Sequence record: NC_135732.1
Reading direction: 5' to 3' (one strand)
DNA length: 64,000 bases
Origin: a phage
Within the stretch, counting starts at the first letter, position 1; each line of letters starts with the position of its first letter. Shown here piece after piece: positions 15,117 through 63,605 of this stretch. The notes beneath the pieces were generated by a model. That model had not been told where the DNA came from, ran no database searches, and saw nothing but the letters and a program-made list of their open reading frames with translations. A program made the position numbers and the translations under genes.

Positions 15117-15935
15117 TTGAGCAAGAAAGAGTCCAACGACAAATATTACACAAACCCTGAGTATGCAGAATATCTTGTTGGTAAAGTAAAAGATAAGTAT
15201 GGAAATTGTGCATACGTTGAGCCTTCTGCTGGAAGGGGTTCTTTTTCAAAACTATTTTCAGAGATACTGTCTTACGATCTAGTACCAGATCCTGAATTTG
15301 AAGGACCAACACCGTGCATTCAGGCAAACTTCTTGGAGGTGCATCCCAAGGCAGATGTCTTCATAGGTAACCCACCATTTGGCAAGAATTCATCTTTAGC
15401 TTGCAAATTCTTTAACCATTGTGCATCATTGCTAGAGCTTGGAGGGGCTATAGCCTTCATCTTGCCACGGACATTTGAAAAAATATTTTTTGCAAACAAA
15501 CTGGACATGTCGATGCACCTTGTCTACAGTGAAAGGTGCCCTAAGAACTCGTTTCTACTTAATGGCAAACCTTATGACGTGCCGTGTGTTTTCCAAATTT
15601 GGGAGAAAAAGGCGTGCAACAGGGATCCTGTAGAGATTGGGGAGAATAAGTTATTTTCTTTTAGCACTCCAGATGACTACGACTTCTGTGTAAGACGTGT
15701 TGGGTATAATGCTGGAAAAGTATTGGGGGAGGATGACCCAAAATCTGAAGAATCAACATATTTCATAAAATCTTTAGTTGACGGTGTTGACAGAGTGTTT
15801 GCTGAATGCTATTCTTCTTTTCAAGAAGAAGCAGGTAAGACTGCCGGAATGAAGAGTATAGGTAAGAAAGAACTACAATACATTTTGGAGACTAGGTATG
15901 ATCAAAAGCATAGACTTGACCAAAGAACTTACTGA
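15117..15935 (+). CDS. DNA N6-adenine methyltransferase
   Basis: Motifs VEPSAGRGSF (AdoMet binding) and NPPFG (motif IV). Track start TTG 15087 lies inside the terminator hairpin, so the in-frame TTG at 15117 after GGAGG is preferred; uncertain. Confidence 0.65.
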   Translation: MSKKESNDKYYTNPEYAEYLVGKVKDKYGNCAYVEPSAGRGSFSKLFSEILSYDLVPDPEFEGPTPCIQANFLEVHPKADVFIGNPPFGKNSSLACKFFNHCASLLELGGAIAFILPRTFEKIFFANKLDMSMHLVYSERCPKNSFLLNGKPYDVPCVFQIWEKKACNRDPVEIGENKLFSFSTPDDYDFCVRRVGYNAGKVLGEDDPKSEESTYFIKSLVDGVDRVFAECYSSFQEEAGKTAGMKSIGKKELQYILETRYDQKHRLDQRTY

Positions 15936-16356
15936 TGCAAAAGCTTTTGGTGAGACAGCGGTACAAAGGGGGCAGGCGATGGGACTGGCACTACCTTTCG
16001 TATTAAAAGAGCACTTTACAGATTTTCAACTTATCAAGGGTGATAAGGGAATGCTTATCCTGGAGCATAAGTTGAGTAAGAAACGCTATAAAGTTGTTTT
16101 TAATTCTAAAGCTCCAACAAAACTGGGATTCAGAACTTACAATCTTAACCCATCCTACACTAAGGGTGTTGGAAGGGTAGAACAACAGCATTTCAGTGCC
16201 AGAGCTTCTTTAGCCCCTTTGATGCTAAATTTCTCAGGGGTGGCTTTAGGATACCTTGATAAGAAAAGAGTTCTTCATGTCCGTTTCACAGACTTTGTAA
16301 CGCTTCTAGCCAACAACGAGGTTGATGAAAAGGGACGTGTAAAAACAAACTTCTAA
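15898..16356 (+). CDS. hypothetical protein
   Basis: 152-aa ORF. Confidence 0.45.
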   Translation: MIKSIDLTKELTDAKAFGETAVQRGQAMGLALPFVLKEHFTDFQLIKGDKGMLILEHKLSKKRYKVVFNSKAPTKLGFRTYNLNPSYTKGVGRVEQQHFSARASLAPLMLNFSGVALGYLDKKRVLHVRFTDFVTLLANNEVDEKGRVKTNF

Positions 16357-16383
16357 TAACGCATAGTATGATTGGAGAACGCA

Positions 16384-16575
16384 ATGACACTAAAGTTAAC
16401 AATTCCAGACAGCTTTTCAGAAGACTTTATCCCAGAAATGATGGGTAAGATGCGATCATTGCTTGATCAGATCGAGGAAGCTGTTTGGGAAGACGATGCT
16501 GTAGTGGCTAACGAGCTGGTAGATAAGTGTAAAAGTATTATTGATGCAGTTGAAGAATACCACGGAGGTTTTTGA
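16384..16575 (+). CDS. hypothetical acidic protein
   Basis: Start at ATG 16384 after GGAGAA RBS. Confidence 0.4.
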   Translation: MTLKLTIPDSFSEDFIPEMMGKMRSLLDQIEEAVWEDDAVVANELVDKCKSIIDAVEEYHGGF

Positions 16576-17189
16576 TGGATATTATTGTTCTTAACGCCCC
16601 ACCCAGCAGTGGTAAGGATCACATTGCAGATCTCTTGTTGGAAGCTATTCCTAACTCACACCACCGTGAGGTTAAGGAGATGCTCTTCAGTGTGGCAATT
16701 AAGGCAGCTGGTGTAACTCCTCAACTCTGGAATGCACTTTATGACCGCCACTACAAAGAAGAGCCTTGCCCTTTCTTAATGATAGACGGCAAGCATGTTT
16801 CTCCGCGAGAATGGATGATCCATTGTAGTGAAAATCTGATTAAACCTATCTTTGGTGAAGATGCTTTCGGTAAAGCCGCAGTCGCATCTTTGAAGAAAGA
16901 TTTCCCTAAAGGTAAAGGGGTTGTTGTTTACTCTGATGGTGGATTCAAAGAGGAGCTGGCATGCCTTAGCGAGTACGCGTACAGCACAGGTGGAGATCTG
17001 TTGTTGTTCCGTATTCACCGTGTCGGATATGACTGGGGAAATGATTCCAGAACCTATCTAAGTCTGGAAAAGAACGGAATAAAAGGAATTGAGTTCGATG
17101 TTGTAAACCCTGAAGGTGCACCTTGGGAATGTGCATCGGAGATTGTGTGCAAGTATATTGATGCTAAAGAGGCCCAAGAAGAATGTTAA
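16572..17189 (+). CDS. deoxynucleoside monophosphate kinase
   Basis: N-terminal P-loop variant IIVLNAPPSSGKDH typical of phage dNMP kinases (T4 gp1-like). Confidence 0.6.
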   Translation: MMDIIVLNAPPSSGKDHIADLLLEAIPNSHHREVKEMLFSVAIKAAGVTPQLWNALYDRHYKEEPCPFLMIDGKHVSPREWMIHCSENLIKPIFGEDAFGKAAVASLKKDFPKGKGVVVYSDGGFKEELACLSEYAYSTGGDLLLFRIHRVGYDWGNDSRTYLSLEKNGIKGIEFDVVNPEGAPWECASEIVCKYIDAKEAQEEC

Positions 17190-17776
17190 TCGGTATTGAT
17201 GTAGATTTGACACTGGTAGATTCAGGAACAGCATGGTGGGAGTGGTTGGAGCGTTTATATGGTCCAGCCAGTAAGACAGTCACTAAACCTTCTAATGGGT
17301 TAATGTATTACGATCTGTCAAAGTATTGGCCTGATCGCCCCAAAGAAAACATCATAGGGCCTTTTGATTTCTGGAGTGACCCGTTCCTCTACGACTTTCT
17401 TAAGCCTGAAGAGGGGGCTATTGAGGTTATGAAAGATTTGGTGGCTCGTGGTCACAAGCTTGCATTTATCTCGGTATGCAAGAAAGGTCACCTTGCATCT
17501 AAATCAAGGTTCTTAAAGCGTTGGACTAGTGATTTTATGGATCTGGACGATCACACCCAGGGTCACGGCTTCTACGCCACGCATTTCAAGGGAAATGTGG
17601 CTGTAGATGTTATAATTGACGACAGGCATGAATACCTGAACCAATTCGCTTCACGCCCTGAAGTTATTAAAATCCTAAAAGATACGCCTTATGAGCAATT
17701 TGAGGAGTTAAAGGTCAGTGTTGACTATACCGCTAATAGCTGGTATAAAATAGGAAAGTTTTTAGAAGGTATTTGA
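17183..17776 (+). CDS. HAD-family 5'(3')-deoxyribonucleotidase
   Basis: HAD motif I IGIDVDLTL and motif IV VIIDD. Confidence 0.65.
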   Translation: MLIGIDVDLTLVDSGTAWWEWLERLYGPASKTVTKPSNGLMYYDLSKYWPDRPKENIIGPFDFWSDPFLYDFLKPEEGAIEVMKDLVARGHKLAFISVCKKGHLASKSRFLKRWTSDFMDLDDHTQGHGFYATHFKGNVAVDVIIDDRHEYLNQFASRPEVIKILKDTPYEQFEELKVSVDYTANSWYKIGKFLEGI

Positions 17777-17777
17777 A

Positions 17778-17978
17778 ATGGGCAGATGTTCTAAAGGTGG
17801 CGATCCTGTAGTCAGATACGGTGACTGGCTAGAGGTGTATGATCTGGGAGGTAAGCTGGTGTATGCCTCCAGGATCACCCAAGACATGTGCTCCGATATG
17901 TTCAACAGATACCTTGCATTTAAGGCCAACATAAACCCAGACGAAATTTCCAAAATTAAAACAAGGAGAGCTAAATAA
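17778..17978 (+). CDS. hypothetical protein
   Basis: 66-aa ORF. Confidence 0.4.
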   Translation: MGRCSKGGDPVVRYGDWLEVYDLGGKLVYASRITQDMCSDMFNRYLAFKANINPDEISKIKTRRAK

Positions 17979-18961
17979 TGCTAAAACTGTGCACTGCAAA
18001 GATCATTGCTGACAGCATTTCCGAGAAAGGTAAGCGCATCACAACTTTTGAGCTAGAGTATCCTCGAATTATTCACTCAGAGCTTATGACGCACCGAGTG
18101 TTCAGCCGAAACGCCATGTCTTCCCGTGCAGTGCCTGTCGGAAAGATGCTGCAACAGATTGTGGAGAATCCGGCAATGCCAGTTCGCTTCGGTGTAAATA
18201 AGCGAGGAATGGAAGATGGTGGGGAACACGATCAAAAGATCCGTGTAGAGTACACTGATATGGAGCTAACTCCGGAAGAGTTTTGGAAAGAAGCTGCAAA
18301 AAACGCCGCTTGGCATGCAGAGAAGTTTGCCCTTGCTGGTTACCATAAGCAAGTATGTAACCGCTTAGTGGAGCCTTTTCAGCGCATGAAAACAGTTGTA
18401 ACAAGCACCGAGTGGAATAATTTTTTCCACCTCCGTTGCTGGCACGATGCGGATCCTACGATTCAGATGTTAGCTAATTGTATGTGGGAGGCTCTTGTGA
18501 ATAGCACTCCTGAAATCCTTAAACCGGGTCAATGGCACACTCCATATGTAGAGCACGTTTATTTGGACGGGGAGTTTAACTACGCTGTACGTGACACAGA
18601 AGGAAAGCTCTGCATTCTCGATACTAAAGAAGCTCTGTCTATCAGTGCTAGTTGCTGTGCACAAGTATCTTATCGAAATATTGACAGCACGTTTGAAAAG
18701 GCAGACAGTGTGGCTAAAAAATTGATTGGTGGGGATCGTATTCATGCAAGCCCTTACGAGCACCAGGCAACACCTATGGATCACGATAACGCAATGGAAC
18801 GTTTAAACTACTACCTGTCTTCATGTGAAATCACACAAGACATCAGTACTTGGCAGGAAGGTGTAACCCATCAAGACCGTGATGGTAAATTCTGGTCTGC
18901 CAACTTTTGTGGGTGGGTTCAGCACAGACAACTGCTTAATAACCACTTCGTGAAAGGTTAA
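17978..18961 (+). CDS. thyX: flavin-dependent thymidylate synthase ThyX
   Basis: ThyX signature HSELMTHRVFSRNAMSSRA (RHR...S..SxR). Confidence 0.85.
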   Translation: MLKLCTAKIIADSISEKGKRITTFELEYPRIIHSELMTHRVFSRNAMSSRAVPVGKMLQQIVENPAMPVRFGVNKRGMEDGGEHDQKIRVEYTDMELTPEEFWKEAAKNAAWHAEKFALAGYHKQVCNRLVEPFQRMKTVVTSTEWNNFFHLRCWHDADPTIQMLANCMWEALVNSTPEILKPGQWHTPYVEHVYLDGEFNYAVRDTEGKLCILDTKEALSISASCCAQVSYRNIDSTFEKADSVAKKLIGGDRIHASPYEHQATPMDHDNAMERLNYYLSSCEITQDISTWQEGVTHQDRDGKFWSANFCGWVQHRQLLNNHFVKG

Positions 18962-18962
18962 T

Positions 18963-18988
18963 CCTATCACAGCGATAGGTAACTTTTG
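18963..18988 (+). terminator. putative terminator hairpin
   Basis: CCTATC-acagc-GATAGG then T-rich run. Confidence 0.45.
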
Positions 18989-18990
18989 TG

Positions 18991-19019
18991 TTGACTAATA
19001 GTATTAGATAATCTATAAT
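18991..19019 (+). promoter_or_regulatory. strong sigma70-like promoter
   Basis: TTGACT, 17-bp spacer, TATAAT. Confidence 0.7.
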
Positions 19020-19059
19020 AATGGCTCACTTTGTTGGTGAGCCAGAAATGGAGACAGAT

Positions 19060-19521
19060 ATGAGTAATGTTATGATTCCTAAAAAGACATTTATTTCAGT
19101 TACTTTGGATTTCCTATCTACCGTTCCCGGGTTTAACGTTCGCACACGAAACGGTCTCCGAGCTGCACTCTTTGCCGTAGGGTTTGATTTAAAAAGTATT
19201 GATGTTCTTCGTGGAAAAAACGTTCGATGCAAAAATAAGCCAACACATTATCGAAAGGCAGATGTATTTGCTGGTGTCATGCGTGCAGACTTTAGATACC
19301 CGCAAATGTATAACGGTGTAGATATTTTAGATGTGGATAAAGCACCTGGTGAGGCAATGCTTGTTCAAGATCTTCCGTATGATATTCCTGTAGAGGATCG
19401 TGTTAATGTAAGAAAGTATACAAAACAATCTGAAAAGGCTGAAGATATTCATATTGTTGATGAACCTTTCAATTTTGAAGATCTGCATCGCCTGGAAAAA
19501 TTATTCGGTATTGAAAGCTAA
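19060..19521 (+). CDS. hypothetical protein
   Basis: Track start 19021 lies inside the promoter -10; ATG 19060 with GGAGA RBS preferred. Confidence 0.5.
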   Translation: MSNVMIPKKTFISVTLDFLSTVPGFNVRTRNGLRAALFAVGFDLKSIDVLRGKNVRCKNKPTHYRKADVFAGVMRADFRYPQMYNGVDILDVDKAPGEAMLVQDLPYDIPVEDRVNVRKYTKQSEKAEDIHIVDEPFNFEDLHRLEKLFGIES

Positions 19522-19531
19522 GGTGGTGAAG

Positions 19532-19762
19532 ATGAGTCATAACTCCAAGTGGAAGGATCTTGGTTTTGCAAGTCGGTCAGAGTATGTTGGTTGGCTTTGG
19601 TTCAACGGCCTGACAAACGATATTAAAATGTATGATGATGTTTATTATGACGAGTATACAGGCAAAATTATAAATATCTCTGTAGAAGAGGATACCTTTA
19701 TCCAGCAAGATACTGATACCTGCCTTGATAAATACGTTGATGAAGTGGAGGAAGCAAATTGA
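19532..19762 (+). CDS. hypothetical protein
   Basis: Start ATG 19532 after AAGGTGGTG RBS. Confidence 0.4.
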   Translation: MSHNSKWKDLGFASRSEYVGWLWFNGLTNDIKMYDDVYYDEYTGKIINISVEEDTFIQQDTDTCLDKYVDEVEEAN

Positions 19763-22074
19763 TCACCAAGGTAATTAAAAGCAACGGATGTGAAGTGGCA
19801 TTCGATCCAGAACGTTTAAATAAGGCAGCTATTTTCGGTGACGACGGTAACGGCAATTGGTCACATATTGCACTGGATGCATACAAACGACTGTATGATG
19901 GATGTACAACCAAAGAAGTTAACCAAGCTATCATAGACTCCTGTGTTAGCCGTAAAGACGAAGCACATTCCCGTATGGCTGGTCGTGTTCTTATTGGTCA
20001 GATTTATAAAGAGGCTTTTGGAGGGTTTACAAAGATCCCTTCCTTACCATCATTTTACAACGACATGGTTGAGAAAGGGTATTGGGAGGATATGGGATAT
20101 AGCTTTACCGAGCTAAACACTTTAGACGCTGTTATTGACCACAGTAAAGATCTCGGTTATGGCTATGCAGTCCTTAAACAGTTTCGCGACAAATACGGGA
20201 TCAAGGATACTCTTAAAGACACCTTGTTTGAATCTCCCCAGATGATGTTTATGGGGATAGCAATGGCTGTCATGAAGAATATGCCGAAAGAACGTCGTAT
20301 CAACGATGTTGTAAAATTATACACTTATCTGTCCGACTTAAAGATCAATGCCCCGACACCGTACTTAAACGGGCTGCGCACAGGTAAGACAGGGTATGCA
20401 TCTTGTTGTGTAATAAAAGCTGACGATACAGCAAAATCTATTGGTGTGGCACGTGAAGTTGCGTACACAATGACGGTTAACCAAGCAGGTATCGGCTACT
20501 ATTTATCATCAAGATCTGCAGGTGATGGTGTTCGCGGTAACACTATTAAACACATGGGTAAGATTCCATATTATCGAGGTATTGATGCTGGTGTTAAGGA
20601 GAACAGACAACAATCACGTGGCGGTTCTGCAACAGTATCATTCCTTGCACTGGACCCGCAGATTGATGAGCTAATCCGTTTGAGAAACCCTATGACTGTT
20701 GCTTCAAAAAGAATCAACACCATGGACTACTCCATCGGTATTAATAGGTCGTTTATCAACCGTGTGGCTAAGAATTTAGATTGGATGCTTGTTTCTTATA
20801 AGCACGCTCCTCAACTGCATGAGGGTATCTTCACCATGTCTATGGAGGAGTTTGATGCAGAGGTTGATCGTATTGCTAAAGATGACAGTATCCCTAAAAC
20901 ATGGATCCGAGCCAGAGATCTTGCTGTTGAACTGATCACGCAGCGTACTGAGGTGGGAAGGCTGTATGTATACTGGACAGATGAGATGAATAGACATACA
21001 CCTTTTAAAGATGTGATCTATTCAAGTAACCTGTGTGCAGAAATAGCCCTCCCTACAAAAGGCTATTCAGATATGCGTAATATCTTCAAGTACGATGCTG
21101 ATGATGGAGAGGTTGCATTGTGCTTCCTGTCATCTCTTGTAGCTGGAAGGGTTACTCCAGAGGAGTATGAGGATGTTGCATACTACACGGTGCTTATGAT
21201 TGACAATGTTATGGAAATCATGACATATCCGTATGAAAATATGGAAAGCACAGTTAAAAAACGCAGATCCATCGGGGTTGGCCTTACCAATGTTGCACAT
21301 TTTATTGCCAGCCACAAGGTTACTTACGGATCTCCTGAAAGTAAACAGCTTGTTCACGATCTTGCAGAACTTCACAGCTACAGCTTGCATAAGGCAAGTT
21401 TACGGTTGGCAAAAGAGCGTGGTGTCTGCGAGTGGATGCATAAAACAAAATATCCAGAAGGTTGGTTACCAATCGACACCTATAACAAAGAGGTCGATAG
21501 CGTGGTGAAAGATCCTTCTCTTAAACAGGATTGGGAAGGGTTACGTAAAGAAATTATTGAAAATGGTGGGCTACGTAATAGCGTTCTTGAAGCATATATG
21601 CCTAATGAAAGCTCTTCGCTGGCAACAGACACCACTAACGGGGTTTATCCTGTCCGTGAGCACATTATCTTTAAAAAGTCGCCACAAGGGCAGGTGCTGT
21701 TTATCGTTCCTGACTATGATGAGTTGAAAGAGTATTACACCTCGGCTTGGGACGTTGATACTAACGACATGATCGATATGTATGCTGTGATTCAAAAATT
21801 TACAGGTCAGGCAATCAGCGCGGATTTATACATAGACTACACCAAGTTGAAAGATGGTAAAATTTCAATGAAGGAGCAGCTAGGGTACCTTATCCGTGCC
21901 ACTAAATTCGGGATGAAGACATGGTATTATTTAAACTCCAGGGTTGGTGCTGGTGACTCATTGGCAGAGGAACTTCATGCCAAGAAACAGGCTGAAGATG
22001 AAACCAGAAAGAACTACCCTTTGATTGCAGATAGTTCGGTTGAAGATCCGTATTGCGAAAGTTGTGCACTATAA
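19759..22074 (+). CDS. nrdA: ribonucleotide reductase class Ia large subunit
   Basis: 771 aa; N-terminal ATP-cone-like start MITKVIKSNGCEVAFDPERL; TTG start after GGAGGAAG RBS; followed by nrdB. Confidence 0.9.
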   Translation: MITKVIKSNGCEVAFDPERLNKAAIFGDDGNGNWSHIALDAYKRLYDGCTTKEVNQAIIDSCVSRKDEAHSRMAGRVLIGQIYKEAFGGFTKIPSLPSFYNDMVEKGYWEDMGYSFTELNTLDAVIDHSKDLGYGYAVLKQFRDKYGIKDTLKDTLFESPQMMFMGIAMAVMKNMPKERRINDVVKLYTYLSDLKINAPTPYLNGLRTGKTGYASCCVIKADDTAKSIGVAREVAYTMTVNQAGIGYYLSSRSAGDGVRGNTIKHMGKIPYYRGIDAGVKENRQQSRGGSATVSFLALDPQIDELIRLRNPMTVASKRINTMDYSIGINRSFINRVAKNLDWMLVSYKHAPQLHEGIFTMSMEEFDAEVDRIAKDDSIPKTWIRARDLAVELITQRTEVGRLYVYWTDEMNRHTPFKDVIYSSNLCAEIALPTKGYSDMRNIFKYDADDGEVALCFLSSLVAGRVTPEEYEDVAYYTVLMIDNVMEIMTYPYENMESTVKKRRSIGVGLTNVAHFIASHKVTYGSPESKQLVHDLAELHSYSLHKASLRLAKERGVCEWMHKTKYPEGWLPIDTYNKEVDSVVKDPSLKQDWEGLRKEIIENGGLRNSVLEAYMPNESSSLATDTTNGVYPVREHIIFKKSPQGQVLFIVPDYDELKEYYTSAWDVDTNDMIDMYAVIQKFTGQAISADLYIDYTKLKDGKISMKEQLGYLIRATKFGMKTWYYLNSRVGAGDSLAEELHAKKQAEDETRKNYPLIADSSVEDPYCESCAL

Positions 22075-22079
22075 TTTTA

Positions 22080-22100
22080 AAGGGGCTTCGGCCCCATTTT
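22080..22100 (+). terminator. rho-independent terminator
   Basis: GGGGC-ttcg-GCCCC followed by ATTTT. Confidence 0.6.
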
Positions 22101-22113
22101 AGAGGTTAGAATA

Positions 22114-23202
22114 ATGGCTGTATTTAATGCTGAGAACACCGCTCATAAAACTGGTGACTATCCGCTGTTTCTAGGACAGCAAATGGGTATGTATGACTCT
22201 ATCAACAAAAAATATCCACAACTGTTTGAACTATACAAAAAACAAAAAGAGCAAGATTGGGCAGAGGATGAAGTGGATTTGTCGCAATCTATTTCAGATT
22301 TTGTAACATGCTCCAAGTCAACTTATGACGTGATGGTGCAGACCTTGATGTGGCAATGGGAGGCTGATAGCGTTGCGGCAAGATCGATCATCTGCCTCTT
22401 TTCACCATTCATCACTAATAGTGAGCTTTTCACTCTATTGATGAAACAGTCAGAGATTGAAGTTCTTCACGCACTAACTTACTCAGAGATTGTTAGACAA
22501 TGCCTCCCCAATGCCCGTGAGATTATAGAAGAGATTCAGGAAAACCAAAACGTTCTGAGCAGATCTGGCGTTATTGTCAAATACATGCAAGAGCTTGAGG
22601 TTATTGGTGCAAAATACCGACTGGATCCTTCTAGTGTTGAAGAAGATATTGTGCGGAAATGCATTCTTAGAGCGCTTTTTGCACTTTTAGCCCTGGAAAG
22701 TATTGAGTTTATTGCAAGTTTTGCATGCACTTTCGCAGTAGCTGAACAGGGTATTTTTGTTCAGGTGGCGCAGCTTGTTCAAAAAATCATGCTTGACGAA
22801 ATGCTACACTCGAAAGGTGATTTTGCCATCATTGATATCCTGCTTAATGATCCCACATGGGAGAAAAGCTTCCTTGAGATAAAGGGGGAGTTAAAAGAGA
22901 TTCTTGATGAAGTACGAACCAAAGAGTACGGTTGGAGTGACTATATTTTCAGCGAAGGAAGGGCGATTATAGGTCTTAACTCACCGTTGCTTAAAGAATG
23001 GGTTGACTATAACTGCTCACCGATTTATGATTACTACGACATCGACAAAGACTTTGTGCCGCCAACAAAGGACCCGCTACCGTTTATGCAGGTGTGGATG
23101 AAACCTTCATTGCAACAGACGGCGAACCAAGAAATGTCGAACACTGACTACCGCGTCAACACAACTGTTAACGACGCTGAAGAAGAAATTTGGGAGTTTT
23201 AA
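22114..23202 (+). CDS. nrdB: ribonucleotide reductase class Ia small subunit
   Basis: 362 aa directly after nrdA; diiron ligand-type glutamate/histidine spacing (EDEV..., EIEVLH...). Confidence 0.85.
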   Translation: MAVFNAENTAHKTGDYPLFLGQQMGMYDSINKKYPQLFELYKKQKEQDWAEDEVDLSQSISDFVTCSKSTYDVMVQTLMWQWEADSVAARSIICLFSPFITNSELFTLLMKQSEIEVLHALTYSEIVRQCLPNAREIIEEIQENQNVLSRSGVIVKYMQELEVIGAKYRLDPSSVEEDIVRKCILRALFALLALESIEFIASFACTFAVAEQGIFVQVAQLVQKIMLDEMLHSKGDFAIIDILLNDPTWEKSFLEIKGELKEILDEVRTKEYGWSDYIFSEGRAIIGLNSPLLKEWVDYNCSPIYDYYDIDKDFVPPTKDPLPFMQVWMKPSLQQTANQEMSNTDYRVNTTVNDAEEEIWEF

Positions 23203-23205
23203 TAT

Positions 23206-23484
23206 ATGAGCTGCGAAAAATCTTTTTTCATCATCATTTACGGTAAGGATAACTGCCCACATTGTGTCAGAGCAAAAGAATTTGCAATCAGCAAAGGTCT
23301 GCCTTTTGTATATAAGACACTTGGCGAGGGCTACACAAAAGAAGAGCTTATTGAGAAGTGTAGTCCAATCGTCCCCCGAACGTTGCCGCAGATCTTCTTA
23401 GAAAGCGATCTTGACAGTATCCATATAGGCGGTGCCGACGATTTCATCTCTTTTGTTAAGAATGGTTTTGGAGAGAAAAAGTGA
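23206..23484 (+). CDS. glutaredoxin-like protein
   Basis: Active-site CPHC in IIYGKDNCPHCVRAKEF; located between nrdB and nrdD. Confidence 0.8.
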   Translation: MSCEKSFFIIIYGKDNCPHCVRAKEFAISKGLPFVYKTLGEGYTKEELIEKCSPIVPRTLPQIFLESDLDSIHIGGADDFISFVKNGFGEKK

Positions 23485-24334
23485 AAGTTGTAAAACGGGA
23501 CGGTAGAGAAGAGTTCTATAACGGAATTAAGGTGATCAAGGCGGCAGAGTCCGCCTTACTTGAGTCTGGACATACTGAAGAAGAAGCTTACCGGATCGCC
23601 TGCGCGGTTAATGAAGTTGTTGCTAACAATCTACCAACCGACCAGTGCACAATCTCTGTAAAAAATATCCATATCCTTGTTGAAGATGCTCTTATGGATA
23701 TGGGTTTAAAATGTGCAGCCAGAGAATACATCCAGTATAGACAGACAAGAGATAATAACAGAGAGGCAGGTGGAAAACTGCTTGCAGATATTAGTGGCTT
23801 CTTGGATCGAACTTGTGATGAATTTACAAAAGAAAACGCAAATAAGCCTACTAATCATGTACACACTCATCGCGACCTGCTTGCAGGTATTCTTAGCAAA
23901 CACCTTGCATCAACACAGATCCTGCCAGACCGTGTCTCCGAAGAGCACAATAAAGGCTTCATCCATGTGCATGATCTTGACTACTTGATCAGTCCGTTAA
24001 CAAACTGTTGTTTGGTAAATTATCCAGATATGTTGGAAAACGGATTCAACATTGGTAACGCCCATGTCAGTAAGCCGAAGTCAATAGGGGTTGCAACAAC
24101 AATCCTTAGCCAAATCTCTAGTGCGGTAGCTAGTGCTCAATATGGGGGTCAGACTATGAGCCATATTGATCATTATCTGGCACAGTATGCTGAAGCGACC
24201 TATGAGAAGAACCTTAAATTTTGCCAGGAACATTGGTTGCCAGATGCTGAGACTGTTGCAATGCAAATGACAGATAAAGACGTATTTGACAGCATGCAGA
24301 CTTTGCTCTATCAAATCAATACATTAACTTCTGT
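23481..24334 (+). CDS. nrdD: anaerobic ribonucleotide reductase NrdD, exon 1 (3' boundary approximate)
   Basis: Exon ends in the conserved block YQINTLTS; ORF then hits a stop at 24342 inside the putative intron. Confidence 0.8.
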
Positions 24335-25128
24335 CAACGGTTAACAAACTGGCCGTTGTAAAACTCTCCTAACCTCATAAGAGGGGTCGGTAAATCCGGC
24401 TAACGGGGAACGCTAAGGCGAAAGCTATGCCAATCCCGTGACTAGTTCTTACAGGAGTTGGAACGGTTGTAACGACTAACGAAAGGCAGAAATGCTTGAC
24501 AAACATTTCTGAACCAAGTAGTGTAGGGGTTAGTTGAAATACTAACTTCGAAATGGAGAGGCTCTATGAAAAAGATCATTCTTAATGGTGAAGAATCAAA
24601 CTATGTGATTGATGAGGTTGGAAACGTATACGGAAAACGTGGAATGCTACACCCAATATTGTGGGGAGGTTATGGAAAAGGTAACAAGCATGTTAAACGC
24701 CGTTATATGTACTCTTTCGACCACAAAGGTAAAAAGATTCGAATCCAAACCTCAAGGATTGTTGCCTTGTATTGTTTGCCGGATGTCCCAGAAGACCCTG
24801 AAAACTGGGAAGTGAATCATAAAGATGGCAATACATTGAATGATCATCCGTCTAACCTAGAGTGGGTTTTGCCGGAAGATAATAAGAGACATGCTTTCCG
24901 AACAGGACTTTGTCCAGGTAAGTGCTATAGGAAAGTGCAGGCATACAAAGGGAAAACCTTGGTGGGTGAATATCCTTCACTCTATGCCTGTGCAAAAGCC
25001 TTAAATTTGAACGTAGGTAACGTTCATAGGGCTATTGAAGGAAATGCCGAAGGTAAGCATCTCACAATAAAGGGTTATTATCTTATTGAAGTAGAGTAAG
25101 AGATAGTCTGGCCCTGTGGAAACACAGG
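24335..25128 (+). mobile_element. putative group I intron in nrdD carrying an HNH homing-endonuclease ORF (boundaries +/- 3 nt)
   Basis: Conserved NrdD sequence resumes in frame at QQTPFITLSLGLDTS...ITPVFPKVLFFLEEGVN; exon 1 ends with U and the intervening sequence ends with G. Confidence 0.6.
24566..25099 (+). CDS. HNH homing endonuclease (intron-encoded)
   Basis: HNH core WEVNHKDGNTLNDHPSNLEWVLPEDN; RBS GGAGAGG before the ATG. Confidence 0.8.
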   Translation: MKKIILNGEESNYVIDEVGNVYGKRGMLHPILWGGYGKGNKHVKRRYMYSFDHKGKKIRIQTSRIVALYCLPDVPEDPENWEVNHKDGNTLNDHPSNLEWVLPEDNKRHAFRTGLCPGKCYRKVQAYKGKTLVGEYPSLYACAKALNLNVGNVHRAIEGNAEGKHLTIKGYYLIEVE

Positions 25129-26401
25129 GAGGAGACAGCAGACTCCATTCATCACATTAAGTTTAGGACTGGATACCTCGGTCTTTGGTAGAATGATTAC
25201 CAAAAATTACTTGAAAGTCCACAAAATGGGTCTTGGTGAAGAACGGATCACACCTGTGTTCCCTAAAGTGCTGTTCTTCCTAGAAGAGGGTGTCAACATG
25301 AACCCTGGAGATCCTAACTATGATTTGAAACGATTAGCTCTGGAATGCTGTGCAGAACGTATCTATCCTGACTTCGTATCTGTACCACTAAATAGGAAAG
25401 TGACAGGCTCGACAGATGGCAAAGTAACGAGCATGGGTTGCCGGAGTTTTCTTAGCAAATACAATGACTTGGAAACAGGCGAGGAGAAATACCTTGGCAG
25501 ATTTAACTTAGGCGTTGTTAGCCTTAACCTGCCAATGATTGCGGCAAAAGCTAAGACGGAAGGTGTTGATTTCTTTGCAGTTCTTGACGAATACTTGGAT
25601 CTTGCATACGAGGCTCACCTTGTAAGGGTTAACCGTCTAAAAGGAACAAAGGCAGGGCAGAACCCCATCATGTGGTGTGAAGGCGCTCTTGCTCGCCTGG
25701 ATCCTGAAGAAAGTATTGATAAACTCTTCTATGATGGGTACGCTTCCATCAGCATTGGGTATATTGGTGTGTATGAAACCTGTCAGATTTTGGGCAGAGA
25801 AGGTGACAAGGCTTTAGCTCTTGGAATCCTTCAGCACATGAGAGATGCTTGTGAGCGGTACAAGAAGGAAAGTAGACTAGCATTTAGCTTGTACGGCACT
25901 CCTTCTGAGAGTCTATGCTATAAAGCTGCAACCTGTCTGGATCGTGAATATCCTGAAGTGTTGAAGCACGAGCATGAATATCTCACCAACAGTTTCCATC
26001 AGCCAGTATGGATAAATAGCTCTCCTTTTGATAAGTGGGAGTATGAGGAAGGTTTTGCTATGATCTCCTCTGGTGGCAACATCGGATACGTAGAAACACC
26101 TAACCTGAAAAACAACCTGGATGCTTTAGAGGCTCTTGTTGACTTCGGGTATAAACACATTATGTATTTTGGTATTAACCAACCTGTGGATAAATGTCTC
26201 AAGTGTGGTTTCTCTGGTGAGTTCAGTGCAACAGCTAAAGGCTTTGTATGCCCAGAGTGTGGAAACCATGAAGAGGGAACGATCAGTGTAATTCGACGTG
26301 TGTCTGGATACCTTTCCAGTCCTAACTCCCGTCCTTACAATAAAGGTAAGCAAGCGGAAGTTATCGAGCGAGTTAAGCACTACGGAAGTTGTGGTTGCTG
26401 A
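25129..26401 (+). CDS. nrdD: anaerobic ribonucleotide reductase NrdD, exon 2
   Basis: DPNYDLKRLALECC block, C-terminal zinc ribbon CLKCG...CPECG and glycyl-radical motif RRVSGYL. Confidence 0.8.
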
Positions 26402-26464
26402 TTCTTGACAAAAGCCACAAGGATGTGGCATATTATTGACACACAGTGAGCTAGGAGGTGTAGT

Positions 26465-26581
26465 ATGTCATCAGGTATTTATAAAATTTGCAAGTGCGGC
26501 TGTAGTTGTAATCTTCGTTGGTGCAAGGCACTAGACGATTTTATTTGGCATTGCCCTAAATGTGATGCGGAGTATCTATGA
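26465..26581 (+). CDS. small Cys-rich (zinc-ribbon-like) protein, 38 aa
   Basis: Not in ORF track (<60 aa). GGAGGTG RBS; CxC..C...HCPKC pattern; ATGA overlap with nrdG start. Confidence 0.45.
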   Translation: MSSGIYKICKCGCSCNLRWCKALDDFIWHCPKCDAEYL

Positions 26582-27051: not shown

Positions 27052-27054
27052 TTG

Positions 27055-27084
27055 TTGACAAAGCTTTGTTGAGTTGGTTATAAT
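27055..27084 (+). promoter_or_regulatory. sigma70-like promoter
   Basis: TTGACA, 18-bp spacer, TATAAT. Confidence 0.65.
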
Positions 27085-27113
27085 TGCCGTAATGAAAGCA
27101 GAGGAGGTGCCAA

Positions 27114-27574: not shown

Positions 27575-27612
27575 AAGTACTTGGCACATCTCAATCTGAA
27601 AGGAGTCCCAAC

Positions 27613-28401: not shown

Positions 28402-28445
28402 TACAGAAGGGTGGTTATTCCACCCTTAAATATCTAAAACAGTTG

Positions 28446-29975: not shown

Positions 29976-30509
29976 ATGACTTGTGCTCGAAAACCTGATG
30001 AACAACGTAACGCCTACGATGAGTATGTGACACCGGAGTGGTGTGCAGAAGGGCTGTATGACCTTATTCCGTTCCCAGAAGACTGGACCTACTTAGAGCC
30101 TTGCAGGAATAGTGCCTCAGGTGTGTTCTACTCCCGTATGCCGTTAGGATCTGCATGGGGAGAAATCCAAGAAGGTGTTGACTATCTGAATACAGAATAC
30201 AACCATGTTGACTGTATTATCACCAACCCACCATACAGTTTGGCTCGTGAGTTTGTAGACAAGGCGTTGAAAGATGCTGACGTAGTTATTATGCTTTTGC
30301 GTCTTAATTTTCTGGAAAGCAAAGCCAGATTTGAATGGTGGCTTGATAATGCACCTACCACTGTGATCACAATATCTAAGCGTCCATCTTTTCAATCAAA
30401 TGGCAGAACTGACGGGCAAGCATATGCATATTTTGTGTGGGATAAGAAAAACCGTTTAGGCTTGCCGCCATTTATGTGGTTGGCACCACCAGAGGTAGAC
30501 CTGAAATGA
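29976..30509 (+). CDS. small phage-type DNA N6-adenine methyltransferase (Dam-like)
   Basis: Motifs YVTPEW and ITNPPYS in a ~177-aa protein. Confidence 0.65.
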   Translation: MTCARKPDEQRNAYDEYVTPEWCAEGLYDLIPFPEDWTYLEPCRNSASGVFYSRMPLGSAWGEIQEGVDYLNTEYNHVDCIITNPPYSLAREFVDKALKDADVVIMLLRLNFLESKARFEWWLDNAPTTVITISKRPSFQSNGRTDGQAYAYFVWDKKNRLGLPPFMWLAPPEVDLK

Positions 30510-35626: not shown

Positions 35627-35627
35627 T

Positions 35628-58260: not shown

Positions 58261-60684
58261 ATGGTAATAAATAATACGACGAACACCTTCATCGTACCAC
58301 CCGCGCTTCACCATTTGGTGGTGCATGAGTATCCCAACTAAGTCACACAACGATGCACCACCATTCTGTTGGTATGCATTAAGTAAAGAGTGTTTAGATC
58401 GGGTCCAGATAGCATGACCATCAAAAGAGTAGATAAACTTCTTACCCGTTGCTTCCCAGAATTTCTCCAGATCTTCTTTACGCCCCTTAAGACCGGGGTT
58501 GGCATCCCAAAGTGCATCGATTACCCTTTGTCCCAACTCTGGGGAGATATCCAGCATGTCTGCAACTTTGTCTTTTTGTGCCCCATACATAACCCCATAC
58601 GTGATAGGTTTACCGTCGTTACGAGACACCTCTCTGCCTGCTACTTTTGTATATGCCTCAGCATTGTTTTGGTGTGCGTCCCCGTTACTTACAACATCAT
58701 AATACAAGCCGTTGTCGAACTCAAAGGCACCCCAAGCCCCGATAAGCTGCTCTAAGTTGGACCCGTCAATACCGATCTCAAAGTATCCCGGAGGAACACC
58801 CCACAGACTACGCATCTCTTTACCCATAACAACTTTAGGAGATGGTTTAGGCATGTTTGCACAAATACTGTGTTTCTGTCTGGAAGTGTTTGTTAATCCA
58901 GAGCTTTTAGCAGGAAGCTTATGGTCAATCTTCAAACGTGGGTGATTAAGAAGACCAGTGTCAACCTTATCCTCCTTGATTGGATCAAGTACCGATCTGC
59001 GGTTTCGCAATGATAACCACAAGACGATATCTTTAGCCATCTCTCCGTTCAATTTTTCAAGATTCGGGCACAGGTGTCCAAACGTATCTTTCAGTTGCGG
59101 AGAAGTAATAAGTGCCCTAGCTTTTCTACGTATTTTCCCGAATACTTCCTTTTTAATCCTTTCGGAGTTAGGAAAGCTTCGGAACTTGTGCACGGTTGTC
59201 TGGAACTTAGCATCAGTTTTGTTCCAGAAGTTGATAATTAGATCACAATACTCTGACTCTAAAAGCTCGTCCATATATGCATATACTCGTGCATCAACAT
59301 CTGCATCAGGTAGAGCTTTCTTCTTGCTGTCTTTAGTTACATCCTTAGTTCTCCACATTGTCGGAAGCCAACCAGCACTGATCAGATACCGCTTAATGTC
59401 GTCCTGATTGCTGATTTTCATAGGTATCTTGCAGTCCGGCATTCGCTTCTGCTGTAGATCACTTATTGCCTGATCCATTAGCTCTTTAGGTAAAGGTTGT
59501 GGTGTGGAGGTGCCCTTAATATAGCCTCTCAAGAAATCAGCCATCTTATCTGGGTCTTTGCAGCCCATCTCTTCACACCATTTTATCCCCATCTTACTGA
59601 CATCTCCTGTGGAGGTAAATGCTCGCTTAGGCGGGGCTTTGAACTCTAAAGCACTCATGTCTACAGGATAGCCAAGCTTATCTTTTAACCATTTCCAACC
59701 ATTATTGGAAATTGTCCCATCTTGGTTAAATGGCTTTTCAGGGAACTTGGGCCGCTGAGACATTGACAGCTCTTTTAAAGGTAGTTGTGGTTCAACACGA
59801 TCAGCGATTTCTTTCATCCACGCATCGCAACGGTCACGTAAAGCAATAGCTCCATCTATGTCAAAATACACACCCTGACGGGCCTGCAGCTCCATCAGGA
59901 AGTGCTGCAGCATGCCTCGGCGCAATGCGTTCTTCCAGGTGATTTTCTTGAACCCTTTCGGCTTCTCTTTGGCTGGATCGTACATAAAGTTCTGCATGTC
60001 AGATTTGCCGTAGAATACACCTTTTGATTCCGCTACCAGCTCTTTCCAGAGCAGCTCCTGGATGATAACGTCCTCGAATACACGATCCACATACTTCCAC
60101 AACGGAAGATCGCGCCAGTCATCAATTTGAACTTTCTGGTTACCAAGGGCGTAGCCCCATGCCATAAGGCCGTGAGGACCAACAGGCTGCATTTTCTTAG
60201 TAACCGGGTTGAATACAGAGTCCGGACAACCTTTTGGTAAAGGGCGATCAGGCCACAAGATTCTGCTCATCGCCAACGTATCAAACAGGTTAACCTGGTG
60301 GTCGTTGATAGTCCCCATGCATTTAGGATCACGGAACATATCAAAATGAATACCGGATAATCTTTCCATCAGCATAAAGTCATAACTGTAGCAGTTATGG
60401 CAGTTCAAAGCTGTTGGTGACCAGTCGGAATTGCCTGTAAGCCAACCTTCCAACTCCGAAAAATCTGCTATGCGAACTTCAAAATCTTTATGAAGAGTTT
60501 TCTTTGCCAGAATAAAGTTCTTAGCCTTCTCTATATCCTCTTCGGAGTAGTGTGTGCGGTCATTTAGAGGAAGGAACAGCATAAAACGGTTCTTATTCAG
60601 CTCTTTAAACAGGCCGCAGTGATAATAAAGATCTGGATCTTCCAGCAAACCGGATGACTCAAAGTCGAACGACCACATGCTCAT
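58261..60684 (-). CDS. DNA polymerase (family A, T7-like), exon 1
   Basis: 3'-5' exo motif FDFESSG; motif A IGIDGSNLE; motif B RNDGKPITYGVMYG; track ORF reads through into the intron (H-K-stop). Confidence 0.8.
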
Positions 60685-60742
60685 ATACAGTTCTCCTTAA
60701 AGGGGAGGCGGTTGTACTACCCCTCCCACTCTTTGTTAAACA

Positions 60743-62821
60743 TTAAAAAGGTGTTTCATCATCCTCAAAACCAGGGACCGGATCAGAGGATGGATCATCG
60801 TATTGGAGGTCTTCCTGCGTGTCAATAGGCTTGACAGTGGGTGTTACAACCTTATCAGCCACAACCTTGCCCATAGGTGTTTCTACAACTGCATGCTCCT
60901 GATCCTCAAACATAGCCTGAGGTCTCCAAACAACCTCCCCACCTTCTCCGTCTGTAAACATCTGCATTTCTTTGTCCCAGTACCAATTACTGGCATCATG
61001 GAACTTACCTGTATGCGGATCCATAACTAAAGTGTCAGCAATACCTAAAGTTTTTGCTGGACGGTTTTTAAGACCTACCAGACGGACACGTCCACGAGAA
61101 CGATCCACCATTTCTTCGGCCTCGACACCTATGACTACCCAACTCAACTGTTCAAGCCCAGCCGATCCTCGCAAATTCTCTTTTCGCACAGGATACCAGA
61201 AAGGTAATGGGTTACCATCCTTGTCCTTAGGGGGCACAATCTCTGTACGTTTGAGGTGAGCGATCACCAAGATAAACACGTTAAACTGCTTACAAAACGC
61301 AGCCAGTTGGGTCATAGCCATGTCCAGTTCTTTTCGCTCATCCTTAACATTAAGCCCTGAAATTACCATGGACAGGTGATCCAGCACAATATAACGACAA
61401 TGGTACAGGCAAACCATTTGCTTAAGCTTGGTAATCAACTCGTCCACTGGAATAGACCCGAAATGTTTGAACACTTTGATTTTTCCAGCTTTTGCCCATG
61501 ATTGGTGAATCTCTGCGTGTTCTTGATCAGTTAAAAACTGGCTAGGATCTTCAACAAACTCTTTAACATCAAACCCTAACTGGTTTGCATACAAGGAGTT
61601 AATTGCTTCCTCTGGGTCCTCCTCAAGATGGATCATACATAGACGATCATCCTCTTCATAGTCATCAGCCTTCGGGCATGTTGGGTCCATTAGGTATCTT
61701 GCAATACAATGTTCCAGTTTTTTAGCTACGGTTGTTTTACCGCCACCTGATGGGCCTGTAAGCATTACAAGTGTCCCCTTGTGCAAGCCTTTTAACATTT
61801 TTTGCAGTTTTGGGAACTCTGCACTGATATCTACCCCGTTGGAAGTCTTTTTCCGCAAAGACTCGATAGAGAAGTCTTCTAAGTCCGACACAGCATCAGG
61901 CACATATTTAACAGGATGCCGGAACATGTTGACAATATCTTCCAGCTTTTTAGCCTTCAGCATGTCACGGATATCTTTTACCCCGTCAGGGTCATTTACT
62001 TCACCAGGGTATTCTACGTGGTAAACGTTATCAGCCATCAAAAATGCTGCGATATTGTGCGTGGCCTCAACACCTTTAATGACGTGTTTTTGCTTCTCTA
62101 CCTCGTTGGCTGCATCGTTATCCATTGCCAGCACAACTGTTCCATAGCTACGGATAAACTTCTCATTGTTTGCAAAAGTATCTACTGCGTTTGCACATCC
62201 ACAGTTAATTCCAACAAAAGGTAGGCAGGGTTTTCCTGCCAGATCACCACCGTTGATAACTGCATCGATCCCGTCCTGGACCTCTTTAGCCCACTGTTTC
62301 ACCTTTGCCGGGGCTTTAGCATTGGTGAGAATCCCTTTTACTTGTATCTGATATGCAGCCTGCCATGCTGCAATAACATCGCCTTCCCCCTCACAAACGT
62401 TAATCTGCTTACGGTTGTTAGAAGATGCACACAGCTTTTGCCCAAACATTTGGGAGTTAGCCTTTACGATCCCAACCGTCGTAAAGTGCCCACGTTGCTC
62501 TTTGGGGATCGTCCAGTCACGCTTTTTGAAACCGGACAGATTCCCGTAGCGGTCGTAATATGGGAAATATGTTGCAGTAACTGTCACACCGTCTTCTTGG
62601 GACAATGCTGATCGCACACCAAAATATTGTGCAGCCATCAGACCGATATTTTGTTGTGGGACAGGGACAATTTTAGTATTTTCTAAAACAGTCTCTACAG
62701 TTTCAACTTCTTTTTCATCACGATAGTCTCGTTTCACACTTCCCCCACTTTTATACTTAGTTGCTTTCGGGTTTGGCTCACCGAAACGGTTGTATGCAGA
62801 TGCCATAAATTTACTTCCCAT
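60743..62821 (-). CDS. primase-helicase (T7 gp4-like: TOPRIM plus DnaB-type helicase)
   Basis: TOPRIM CEGEGD and LAMDNDAAN; Walker A LTGPSGGGKTT; acidic C-terminal tail ...FEDDETPF. Confidence 0.8.
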   Translation of the reverse strand: MGSKFMASAYNRFGEPNPKATKYKSGGSVKRDYRDEKEVETVETVLENTKIVPVPQQNIGLMAAQYFGVRSALSQEDGVTVTATYFPYYDRYGNLSGFKKRDWTIPKEQRGHFTTVGIVKANSQMFGQKLCASSNNRKQINVCEGEGDVIAAWQAAYQIQVKGILTNAKAPAKVKQWAKEVQDGIDAVINGGDLAGKPCLPFVGINCGCANAVDTFANNEKFIRSYGTVVLAMDNDAANEVEKQKHVIKGVEATHNIAAFLMADNVYHVEYPGEVNDPDGVKDIRDMLKAKKLEDIVNMFRHPVKYVPDAVSDLEDFSIESLRKKTSNGVDISAEFPKLQKMLKGLHKGTLVMLTGPSGGGKTTVAKKLEHCIARYLMDPTCPKADDYEEDDRLCMIHLEEDPEEAINSLYANQLGFDVKEFVEDPSQFLTDQEHAEIHQSWAKAGKIKVFKHFGSIPVDELITKLKQMVCLYHCRYIVLDHLSMVISGLNVKDERKELDMAMTQLAAFCKQFNVFILVIAHLKRTEIVPPKDKDGNPLPFWYPVRKENLRGSAGLEQLSWVVIGVEAEEMVDRSRGRVRLVGLKNRPAKTLGIADTLVMDPHTGKFHDASNWYWDKEMQMFTDGEGGEVVWRPQAMFEDQEHAVVETPMGKVVADKVVTPTVKPIDTQEDLQYDDPSSDPVPGFEDDETPF

Positions 62822-63605
62822 TAATTCTGCTCCTTACTACAGGCTCGTTTGCTAAGAATACGGCTTTTGCCCAGCCACGTGGTGTGAGGCTTCGGATCAT
62901 CTTCGTTCTTGCACTCTTCCCACCCAGCTTGGCGTGTTGCATGGAATACCCGCTAACCGCGTCAACTATTTGCGGGACAGGTTTTGTGGCCGGGATTATA
63001 AATCCATTACCTATCCAGCCGCAAGTTATTTTTGGATAGGCATCACGTGGAGCTATAAATTCAGGAAACCAGGGGTTTACATCATCCTCCGGTAAATACC
63101 CGCCATAGTCAGAAGGATGAAAACGGTAATCAGGTTTGCGCCACAGTGTGGACATAACACCAACAGGATTCTCTACATGCCACGGGCAATCGTAAATCTC
63201 TCCCAGCTCTTCCGCAACCCGAGCATCCTTTACAGCATTAATTTGGATCAAAGGATCCTTAGCCAGCTTTTTCTTAAAATGTGCAGCACCTGATACCGCT
63301 AAATGCGTGCACGGAGGAAATGCAAGAATAAAGTCTGGAGCTGGATACATGCAAAAAGTTTCCTGAGGGAACCATGGGTCAATCCAATAATCCACATAGT
63401 GAATGTTAGGATGATCGGTTATCACCTCTGCATAACTGCCGTGGTCAGCACCTTCTGCATTAAAGCACAGGCACAGGTACCCAGCTTTTGCCCAGTCAAT
63501 AACTGCACCACCAGACCCGTCAAATAGACTCCACACAACACCTTTGTGGTAGTGTTCTTTGTAGATGAATTTCAATTTGCTGTCTCCTAATGCAAAAAGC
63601 CCCAC
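62811..63605 (-). CDS. DNA cytosine-5 methyltransferase-like protein
   Basis: Motif I LFDGSGG, PC-type motif IV FPPCTHL, ENV-type motif HVENPVG; short (264 aa) for a C5-MTase. Confidence 0.5.
   Translation of the reverse strand: MGLFALGDSKLKFIYKEHYHKGVVWSLFDGSGGAVIDWAKAGYLCLCFNAEGADHGSYAEVITDHPNIHYVDYWIDPWFPQETFCMYPAPDFILAFPPCTHLAVSGAAHFKKKLAKDPLIQINAVKDARVAEELGEIYDCPWHVENPVGVMSTLWRKPDYRFHPSDYGGYLPEDDVNPWFPEFIAPRDAYPKITCGWIGNGFIIPATKPVPQIVDAVSGYSMQHAKLGGKSARTKMIRSLTPRGWAKAVFLANEPVVRSRINGK

Follow-up and report, generated by a model that had tools for sequence, protein, structure and literature searches.

Orphan DNA methyltransferase genes in an rV5-like coliphage and the motifs they are predicted to mark

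Introduction

The closest described counterparts of the genes considered here come from studies of retron defence. In Bas51 (Escherichia phage WalterGehring, MZ501111), the escapers of the retrons Asa1 and Squ1 were all altered in an 'N6 adenine methyltransferase', and rebuilt D69G, D79G and T83P mutants of the phage abolish defence by these retrons (PMC12548924). The K42 Dcm protein is the trigger of retron Ec86 and raises the level of 5-methylcytosine (5mC) on the multicopy single-stranded DNA (msDNA) of Ec86, as measured by liquid chromatography coupled to mass spectrometry (LC-MS), while its C82A/E128A/K175A/K176A mutant does not (bioRxiv 10.1101/2023.08.16.553469). For N6-methyladenine (m6A) in GTAC, a gamma-class precedent is M.HpyAXII of Helicobacter pylori. 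In this study, we examined a stretch of phage DNA of 64,000 nucleotides (sequence record NC_135732.1; the whole stretch is called the window below) that carries three predicted DNA methyltransferase genes, here termed p1, p2 and p3, each encoded by a single open reading frame (ORF).

15117..15935, plus strand: p1, predicted orphan gamma-type (TaqI-like) N6-adenine DNA methyltransferase (272-aa ORF; phrog_5172, PADLOC PDLC03255, AlphaFold2 (AF2)/Foldseek)
29976..30509, plus strand: p2, predicted minimal N6-adenine DNA methyltransferase for GATC (Dam-type) (177-aa ORF; phrog_799, bas51_0176 ortholog)
62811..63575, minus strand: p3, predicted compact Dcm-like C5-cytosine DNA methyltransferase (254-aa ORF; phrog_757, AF2, K42 Dcm homology)

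We consider it very probable that the phage encodes three orphan methyltransferases dependent on S-adenosylmethionine (SAM) that modify its own replicating DNA. In this scheme, p2 would mark the adenine at every GATC, p1, a type II methylase left without its restriction partner, would write m6A in GTAC, and p3, with a very small target-recognition loop, would add 5mC at a short motif that may be CCWGG-like or different. The marks would block only those restriction enzymes that share these motifs and would confer no general protection. They would also be a liability, since it is these very enzymes that retrons sense. Just past the end of the window lies a fourth methylase, of the type III Mod-like kind.

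Results and discussion

Methylation of a near-identical phage

Across positions 14000-32000 and 60000-64000, the window is 95-100% identical to more than 100 genomes of Vequintavirus (rV5-like) phages of E. coli. The closest matches are ime (100%) and nomo (99.6%), and the BASEL phages Bas48, Bas49 and Bas51 fall within 97-100%. Judged by sequence identity, the window is a segment of an rV5-like Vequintavirus coliphage genome. The Bas51 orthologs of p1, p2 and p3 are ~99% identical to the window proteins, and m6A on Bas51 DNA has been called by nanopore sequencing for the wild-type phage and the T83P mutant (PMC12548924). These published calls are listed below beside the number of target adenines that we counted in the Bas51 genome, in which 703 GATC sites provide 1406 adenines and 258 GTAC sites provide 516.

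m6A in GATC: wild type 1405, T83P 35, target adenines in the genome 1406 (PMC12548924)
m6A in GTAC: wild type 509, T83P 511, target adenines in the genome 516 (PMC12548924)
m6A in other contexts: wild type 576, T83P 349 (PMC12548924)

Because the numbers of calls nearly equal the numbers of target adenines, GATC and GTAC are essentially fully methylated on both strands of Bas51 DNA. The T83P mutant keeps only 35 GATC calls, which indicates that host Dam alone falls behind on phage DNA. Methylation of GTAC is unaffected by the loss of the GATC enzyme activity.

An earlier note on this DNA, made from the sequence alone, had proposed three methyltransferase genes that methylate the phage's own genome, and had held that the idea would fail if virion DNA carried no corresponding motifs. 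All three ORFs are indeed present, each with a strong PHROG match, and the motifs NPPF in p1 and NPPY in p2 are as described. The Bas51 counts for both GATC and GTAC bear out the self-methylation, and both motifs carry m6A on the DNA of that phage. The observation is therefore correct, but it is already public because all three genes are annotated in near-identical phage records. The BASEL record labels p1 (819 nt) and p2 (534 nt) each as 'putative N6 adenine methyltransferase' and p3 (765 nt) as 'Dcm-like C5 cytosine methyltransferase', and methyltransferase annotations for the three genes recur across over 100 GenBank records of near-identical phages. The key functions are likewise already known, as papers on the compact Dcm family (2023) and on GATC methylation (2025) have appeared, and two of the three enzymes (p2 and p3) have previously been tested, either directly or via a relative.

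Some considerations detract from the overall explanation. The published nanopore calls comprise m6A and do not include 5mC. Support for the explanation comes from the ~99%-identical orthologs of the three proteins and, for the chemistry of p3, from a homolog with 54% identity. In addition, the methylase point mutants of Bas51 plate like the wild type on E. coli K-12 without a retron (PMC12548924).

None of the three proteins reaches a curated cut-off of Pfam or NCBIfam. Searches of the PDB with the single sequences of p1, p2 and p3 returned nothing useful, and profile searches gave weak matches.

p2 and methylation of GATC

The p2 ORF starts with an ATG that is preceded by a hairpin and a GGAG sequence, and its product matches phrog_799 (E 5.5e-67). 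The scores with the Pfam family PF05869 'Dam' (19.2 bits; cut-off 28.1) and with TIGR01712 (16.1; cut-off 97) lie below the thresholds. Within 90 residues it carries the methyltransferase motifs in the order X-I-IV, including NPPY at aa 84-87, and it is without a separate recognition domain. It differs from bas51_0176 at two of 177 positions (175/177 identical, 98.9%), and both differences (G162D and V174A) are located outside the motifs. The residues D69, D79 and T83, whose alteration in Bas51 abolishes retron defence, are all present in p2, and among the four annotated methylases of Bas51 this combination occurs in bas51_0176 alone. By analogy with this ortholog, for which the activity has been shown experimentally, p2 is expected to methylate the adenine of every GATC.

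The earlier description of p2 as 'Dam-like' is right with regard to function, as demonstrated for the Bas51 ortholog, and does not extend to sequence, as there is no match at E up to 1 to PF02086, the MethyltransfD12 family of E. coli Dam. The term therefore fits p2 by function only. Similarly, the suggestion that the three enzymes belong to different classes holds for p3, which has a distinct chemistry, and does not hold for p1 and p2, which are both N6-adenine enzymes with the order X-I-IV and have weak mutual PHROG matches.

Downstream of p2, an ortholog of the 'putative glycosidase' bas51_0171 of Bas51 is located at ~31738-32262 on the plus strand of the window. The R87* change in bas51_0171 contributes to escape from retron Asa1.

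p1 and its restriction partner

The p1 protein shares 270 of 272 residues with bas51_0200 of Bas51 and is, as predicted from its sequence, a TaqI-like gamma-type N6-adenine DNA methyltransferase that stands as an orphan within a bacterial family of type II restriction-modification methylases. Translation is assigned to a TTG codon at 15117, which is preceded by GGAGG, because an alternative TTG at 15087 falls inside a hairpin.

15079..15098, plus strand: terminator-like hairpin 5' of p1; GGAGG and the start codon TTG come after it (from the sequence)

The best PHROG match of p1 is phrog_5172 (E 2.5e-129), to which no function is assigned, and a further match is the 'DNA methyltransferase' family phrog_799 (E 2.6e-13). 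Motifs YYTNP (aa 10), EPSAGRG (aa 35) and NPPF (aa 85) follow the order X-I-IV, and a conserved domain of ~100 aa lies C-terminal to the catalytic half, in agreement with a layout of N-terminal catalysis and C-terminal recognition. The PADLOC type II methyltransferase model PDLC03255 covers the full length of the protein (E 1.3e-33). With Pfam Eco57I the score is 15.5 bits, below the cut-off of 25.3, and no NCBIfam model is matched. In an AF2 model with a predicted local distance difference test (pLDDT) score of 92.7, M.TaqI (Foldseek E 1e-7 over ~200 columns) as well as HsdM, M.BseCI and CamA can be superposed on the N-terminal ~175-200 residues. A fold search of BFVD with p1 found no relative of named specificity.

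The family of p1 comprises 791 clusters of ~250-290 aa, with strong conservation in the catalytic half and in the C-terminal ~100 residues. We examined 80 bacterial loci with relatives of p1, which are mostly from Alphaproteobacteria. In 21 of these loci, a conserved ORF of ~210 aa begins 10-40 nt past the methylase stop codon.

~3770-4450, plus strand: restriction-enzyme-like ~210-aa ORF (bacterial loci L023, L037 and L041, plus 18 other bacterial loci)

This partner family matches the PADLOC model REase_II for type II restriction enzymes (E 2.5e-14) and also phrog_6892 (E 1.2e-26). Its members have invariant residues E12, D35 and K42 and a LNPKIDSKxQRRLQCS motif, and searches of Pfam and of solved structures yielded no match and no relative, respectively. 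The pairing of bacterial relatives with a restriction enzyme argues that the substrate of p1 is DNA. A relative of the partner was sought in the window and in Bas51 without success, and the ORF that overlaps the end of p1 is unrelated to it. The phage copy is therefore a true orphan, as the methyltransferases of this window had been called before.

15898-16356, plus strand: 152-aa ORF, phrog_9938 (function unknown), sharing 38 nt with the end of p1

The overlapping ORF occupies the slot where bacterial relatives of p1 have the restriction enzyme. It was considered as a remnant of such an enzyme and rejected, given an hhalign probability of 0.1 against the partner family. The gene contexts of three p1 homologs on large contigs consist mostly of ORFans and are uninformative.

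Assignment of the GTAC mark

On present evidence p1 is probably the source of the complete m6A in GTAC, since 4-bp palindromic specificities usually come from type II families that have a restriction enzyme as partner, as the family of p1 does. Known enzymes that produce m6A in GTAC belong to several mutually unrelated families. A link by homology between p1 and M.HpyAXII was sought and not found, with no Helicobacter or Pyrococcus locus among the 80 bacterial loci, and M.HpyAXII is thus no more than a lead. Many relatives of p1 are found in Rhodobacterales and Sphingomonadales, and a link to RsaI was considered on this account. It was rejected because M.RsaI makes N4-methylcytosine (m4C), not m6A.

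There are 338 GATC and 119 GTAC sites in the window. The latter are scarce (119 observed versus 202 expected), with an observed-to-expected (O/E) ratio of 0.59 that is lower only for CTAG (0.56), and GATC is not avoided (O/E 1.03). Among the bacterial loci, the O/E ratio for GTAC is 0.74 where the methylase is accompanied by the restriction enzyme and 0.89 where the methylase stands alone, an effect in the expected direction that is too weak to count. As a separate observation, GTAC is under-represented in the window and yet fully methylated in Bas51, whose DNA is 99% identical.

p3, a compact C5 methyltransferase

The p3 protein is identical to bas51_0074 at 253 of 254 positions. Its gene had been recognized in the earlier note with a start at GTG 63605. 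The gene stands, whereas the start is most likely the TTG at 63575, giving 254 rather than 264 aa, because the GTG lies in a hairpin, AGGAG precedes the TTG, and the BASEL annotation uses the latter.

63597..63622, minus strand: terminator-like hairpin with an 11-bp stem, 5' of p3 (contains GTG 63605)
63643..63671, minus strand: sigma-70-like promoter TTGACA-17-TACAAT, 11/12, 5' of p3 (consensus match only)

The order of elements 5' of p3 is odd: no more than 20 nt separate the promoter-like sequence from a strong terminator-like hairpin, and the start of p3 comes only after the hairpin.

Comparison of p3 with phrog_757, whose profile has 247 positions, gives an E value of 5e-87. The family consists of 3546 clusters, the members listed being 219-262 aa long, and homologs occur in 1503 phage records that include Drexlerviridae, Webervirus, Kagunavirus and RB49-like phages. 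The protein had been regarded as unusually short, a view that applies only against classical bacterial enzymes. Within its own family, which is very common in phages, its length is normal.

Motifs I, IV and VI of a C5 methyltransferase are evident at FDGSGG (aa 18), PPC (aa 87-89, with Cys89) and ENP (aa 135-137, with Glu135), respectively. In 35 diverse members of the family, no variation occurs at P87-P88-C89, at E135-N136-P137 or at about 40 further positions, and at least 90% of the aligned members share G20-S21-G22 of the SAM loop. The family-invariant residues are all present in p3. The invariance of the catalytic motifs indicates that p3 is probably an active enzyme under purifying selection. 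The AF2 model (pLDDT 86.6) finds nearly exclusively DNMT3 catalytic domains among its top 50 fold matches in the PDB, mostly of DNMT3A and DNMT3B and one of DNMT3C. Prophage CP-933R methylase 3g7u is the one other match.

Over its full length, p3 is 54% identical to the 236-aa KarlJaspers Dcm (bas06_0055; E 2e-86), and residues C82, E128 and K175 of that protein align. From this tested relative we infer that p3 is a compact Dcm-like enzyme that makes 5mC. The case for a CCWGG motif is weakened in two ways. For K42 Dcm, the motif was taken over from E. coli Dcm, with site mutation as its sole support (bioRxiv 10.1101/2023.08.16.553469). Moreover, the variable loop between GNGF and GGKS reads G-YSxQH in p3 versus DNPGW in K42. 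The loop is of another type, and the target motif of p3 may therefore differ from that of K42.

A fourth methyltransferase and the genomic setting

In near-identical genomes, a gene for a further methylase of 441 aa starts 836 nt past the end of the window.

~64836-66161 (equivalent window positions), minus strand: type III Mod-like methyltransferase, 441 aa (bas51_0070; L002:7837-9162; PF01555, PADLOC Mod)

This protein matches PF01555 (E 1.5e-42) and the PADLOC type III Mod model (E 2e-199), and has a DPPF motif and a Mod-like N-terminus. Its gene belongs to the replication module that also contains p3. There are consequently three adenine-methylase genes and two named m6A motifs to be considered for Bas51. 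The m6A calls in other contexts may be noise or may reflect an asymmetric motif written by the Mod-like enzyme.

All of these methyltransferase genes are placed in early or middle modules for DNA metabolism (replication and nucleotide metabolism). Specifically, p1 adjoins a gene for a DnaQ-like exonuclease, p2 sits among genes for ribonucleotide reductase, PhoH and ClpP, and p3 is immediately 5' of genes for a primase/helicase and a polymerase, overlapping the start of the primase/helicase gene by 11 nt. A gene for a class III anaerobic ribonucleotide reductase is located at ~23690-26400 (plus strand) of the window, as placed by alignment with L001:9694-12401. In the 97.8%-identical EmilHeitz record, the annotation gives this gene as split and places an ORF for a homing endonuclease within it.

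Each search also matched 16-39 'Campylobacter phage' records (MG0656xx, host C. jejuni). The listed records of this series are ~97-99% identical to E. coli Vequintavirus DNA and are probably mislabelled or contaminant.

Restriction, retrons and the value of the marks

The suggestion that several methyltransferases provide broad protection against host restriction is contradicted by published data. In the BASEL study, Vequintavirinae were found to be 'exceptionally susceptible' to restriction-modification systems, and the efficiency of plating (EOP) of Bas51 (one experiment row of the raw data) was 1e-4 on EcoRI and 0.06 on EcoCFT_II, with no plaques on EcoRV. These phages rank among the coliphages most sensitive to restriction, their several methylases notwithstanding. 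Any protection must be motif-specific and limited to enzymes that have GATC, GTAC or the C5 motif within their sites. To our knowledge, no recognition site of the BASEL restriction panel contains GATC, GTAC or CCWGG, and the panel therefore does not refute such motif-specific protection. The methylases also trigger retron defence and, because retrons sense these enzymes, they carry a cost.

Full-text literature searches for Vequintavirus methylomes found the retron paper (PMC12548924) alone, and the rV5 genome paper contains no restriction or methylation data.

Alternative explanations

Two alternatives concern the substrates of the enzymes. We regard it as very unlikely that p1 acts as an N6-adenine methyltransferase on RNA (rRNA or tRNA) instead of on DNA, even though several comparisons speak for RNA and count against the DNA assignment made above. 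The best PDB profile matches of p1 are Ta1320 (E 2e-4) and METTL5 (E 0.05), which together with TrmN represent RNA m6A and N2-methylguanosine (m2G) enzymes. TrmN, the top Foldseek match, superposes on the catalytic domain as well as the DNA enzymes do, as do Ta1320 and PH1948, and homologs are called 'predicted RNA methylase' in some sources, some of them with a weak Mtase_EDM2 match. However, this resemblance is confined to a generic Rossmann/NPPF core of ~175 aa, on which M.TaqI, M.BseCI and CamA score equally well, whereas the type II DNA methylase model is matched over the full length and a type II restriction-enzyme-like gene is located directly 3' in 21 of the 80 bacterial loci. For p3, the corresponding alternative is that it is not an active DNA C5 methylase, being either a degenerate relic or an enzyme for another substrate, as Dnmt2 is for tRNA. 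Several features could be read in this manner. There is no match of p3 to PF00145 at E up to 1, which also tells against our assignment, and a precomputed PF00145 match exists for three of the 120 p3 homologs listed. The canonical QxRxR of motif VIII is not recognizable in the alignment, the target-recognition region is very small (the sole variable stretch spans ~24 residues, aa 193-216), and the best HHpred match in a related paper is a Dnmt2 homolog. Nevertheless, a relic or an enzyme for another substrate is highly improbable given that the catalytic Cys and ENP are invariant, and the SAM loop nearly so, in the 35 diverse members, that the 54%-identical member makes 5mC in DNA in dependence on C82 and E128, and that the fold agrees with those of the DNA enzymes DNMT3A and DNMT3B.

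The remaining alternatives accept DNA as the substrate and differ in which enzyme writes GTAC and in why the marks are kept. The 441-aa Mod-like enzyme could instead write GTAC, which would be at odds with the role proposed for p1. In that event, p1 would produce a rarer or partial motif among the 349-576 'other' calls or would be inactive on virion DNA. The count of three adenine-methylase genes and two named motifs leaves room for this possibility, as do the well-formed PF01555 domain of the 441-aa protein, the barely stronger avoidance of GTAC in bacterial loci with the restriction enzyme, and the unrelated families from which known GTAC enzymes come. Type III Mod enzymes normally recognize asymmetric sites and mark one strand. 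The protein matches the type III Mod model very strongly, and it would for this reason be a poor fit to GTAC, a palindrome that is marked on both strands (509/516). It is p1, not the Mod-like protein, that belongs to a type II family with a restriction partner. We consequently judge the Mod-like enzyme to be an unlikely, if credible, writer of GTAC and retain p1 as the probable one. With regard to purpose, the methylases might be kept mainly for reasons other than restriction, such as full GATC marking against MutH and methyl-directed nicking, or control of replication or packaging. The E. coli host already has Dam and Dcm, and the phage keeps its own enzymes despite this. Other points in favour are that GATC is not avoided in the window, that host Dam leaves phage GATC almost unmethylated without the phage enzyme (35 calls), that Vequintavirinae are highly sensitive to the restriction systems tested, and that the genes all lie in replication and nucleotide-metabolism modules. 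Such a role nonetheless seems quite unlikely as the main one, in that no essential role is visible in the plating of the point mutants on K-12, and orphan copies of methylases from restriction-modification systems are most simply read as serving motif-specific anti-restriction. A combined picture, which we offer as doubtful, is that p1 is the first characterized member of a ~270-aa type II family specific for GTAC, the Mod-like enzyme writes an asymmetric motif among the 349 'other' calls, p3 has a motif different from CCWGG, and four marks are kept despite retron sensing and the lack of protection against common E. coli restriction systems. If this picture were true, four methylation marks would imply a role beyond anti-restriction.

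Comparison with known systems

Enzymes of the M.TaqI type, including M.HpyAXII, share with p1 the motif order X, I, IV, and the catalytic N87 of M.HpyAXII corresponds in position to the NPPF of p1 at about residue 85. They differ in length (421 aa for M.TaqI and 331 aa for M.HpyAXII versus 272 aa for p1) and in the C-terminal region, as the last ~100 aa of p1 match no solved structure. In the phage, p1 is also an orphan.

For p3, the closest solved folds are the catalytic domains of DNMT3A and DNMT3B (E ~1e-6, TM-score ~0.5). DNMT3A and DNMT3B have a minimal target-recognition region. They are oligomeric, eukaryotic CpG enzymes with 13-15% identity to p3, and the resemblance is structural only. 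Much nearer in sequence are the Dcm proteins of the Drexlerviridae phages K42 and KarlJaspers, which are nearly identical to each other and belong to the same compact family as p3, with the catalytic Cys, the Glu of ENP and K175 aligned. They differ from p3 in length (236 versus 254 aa) and at K176, which is Ile in p3.

E. coli Dam and T4 Dam yield m6A in GATC, the same product as that expected from p2. These are alpha-class enzymes, a class with the order motif I, recognition domain, motif IV, in contrast to the gamma-like order X-I-IV of p2, and there is no detectable sequence relationship. The nearest system of all is bas51_0176, in which NPPY, D69, D79 and T83 are conserved and whose neighbours are the same as those of p2, with a ClpP-like protease gene upstream and the 'putative glycosidase' gene five genes downstream. 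It is distinguished from p2 by the two substitutions and by an activity that has been measured in Bas51.

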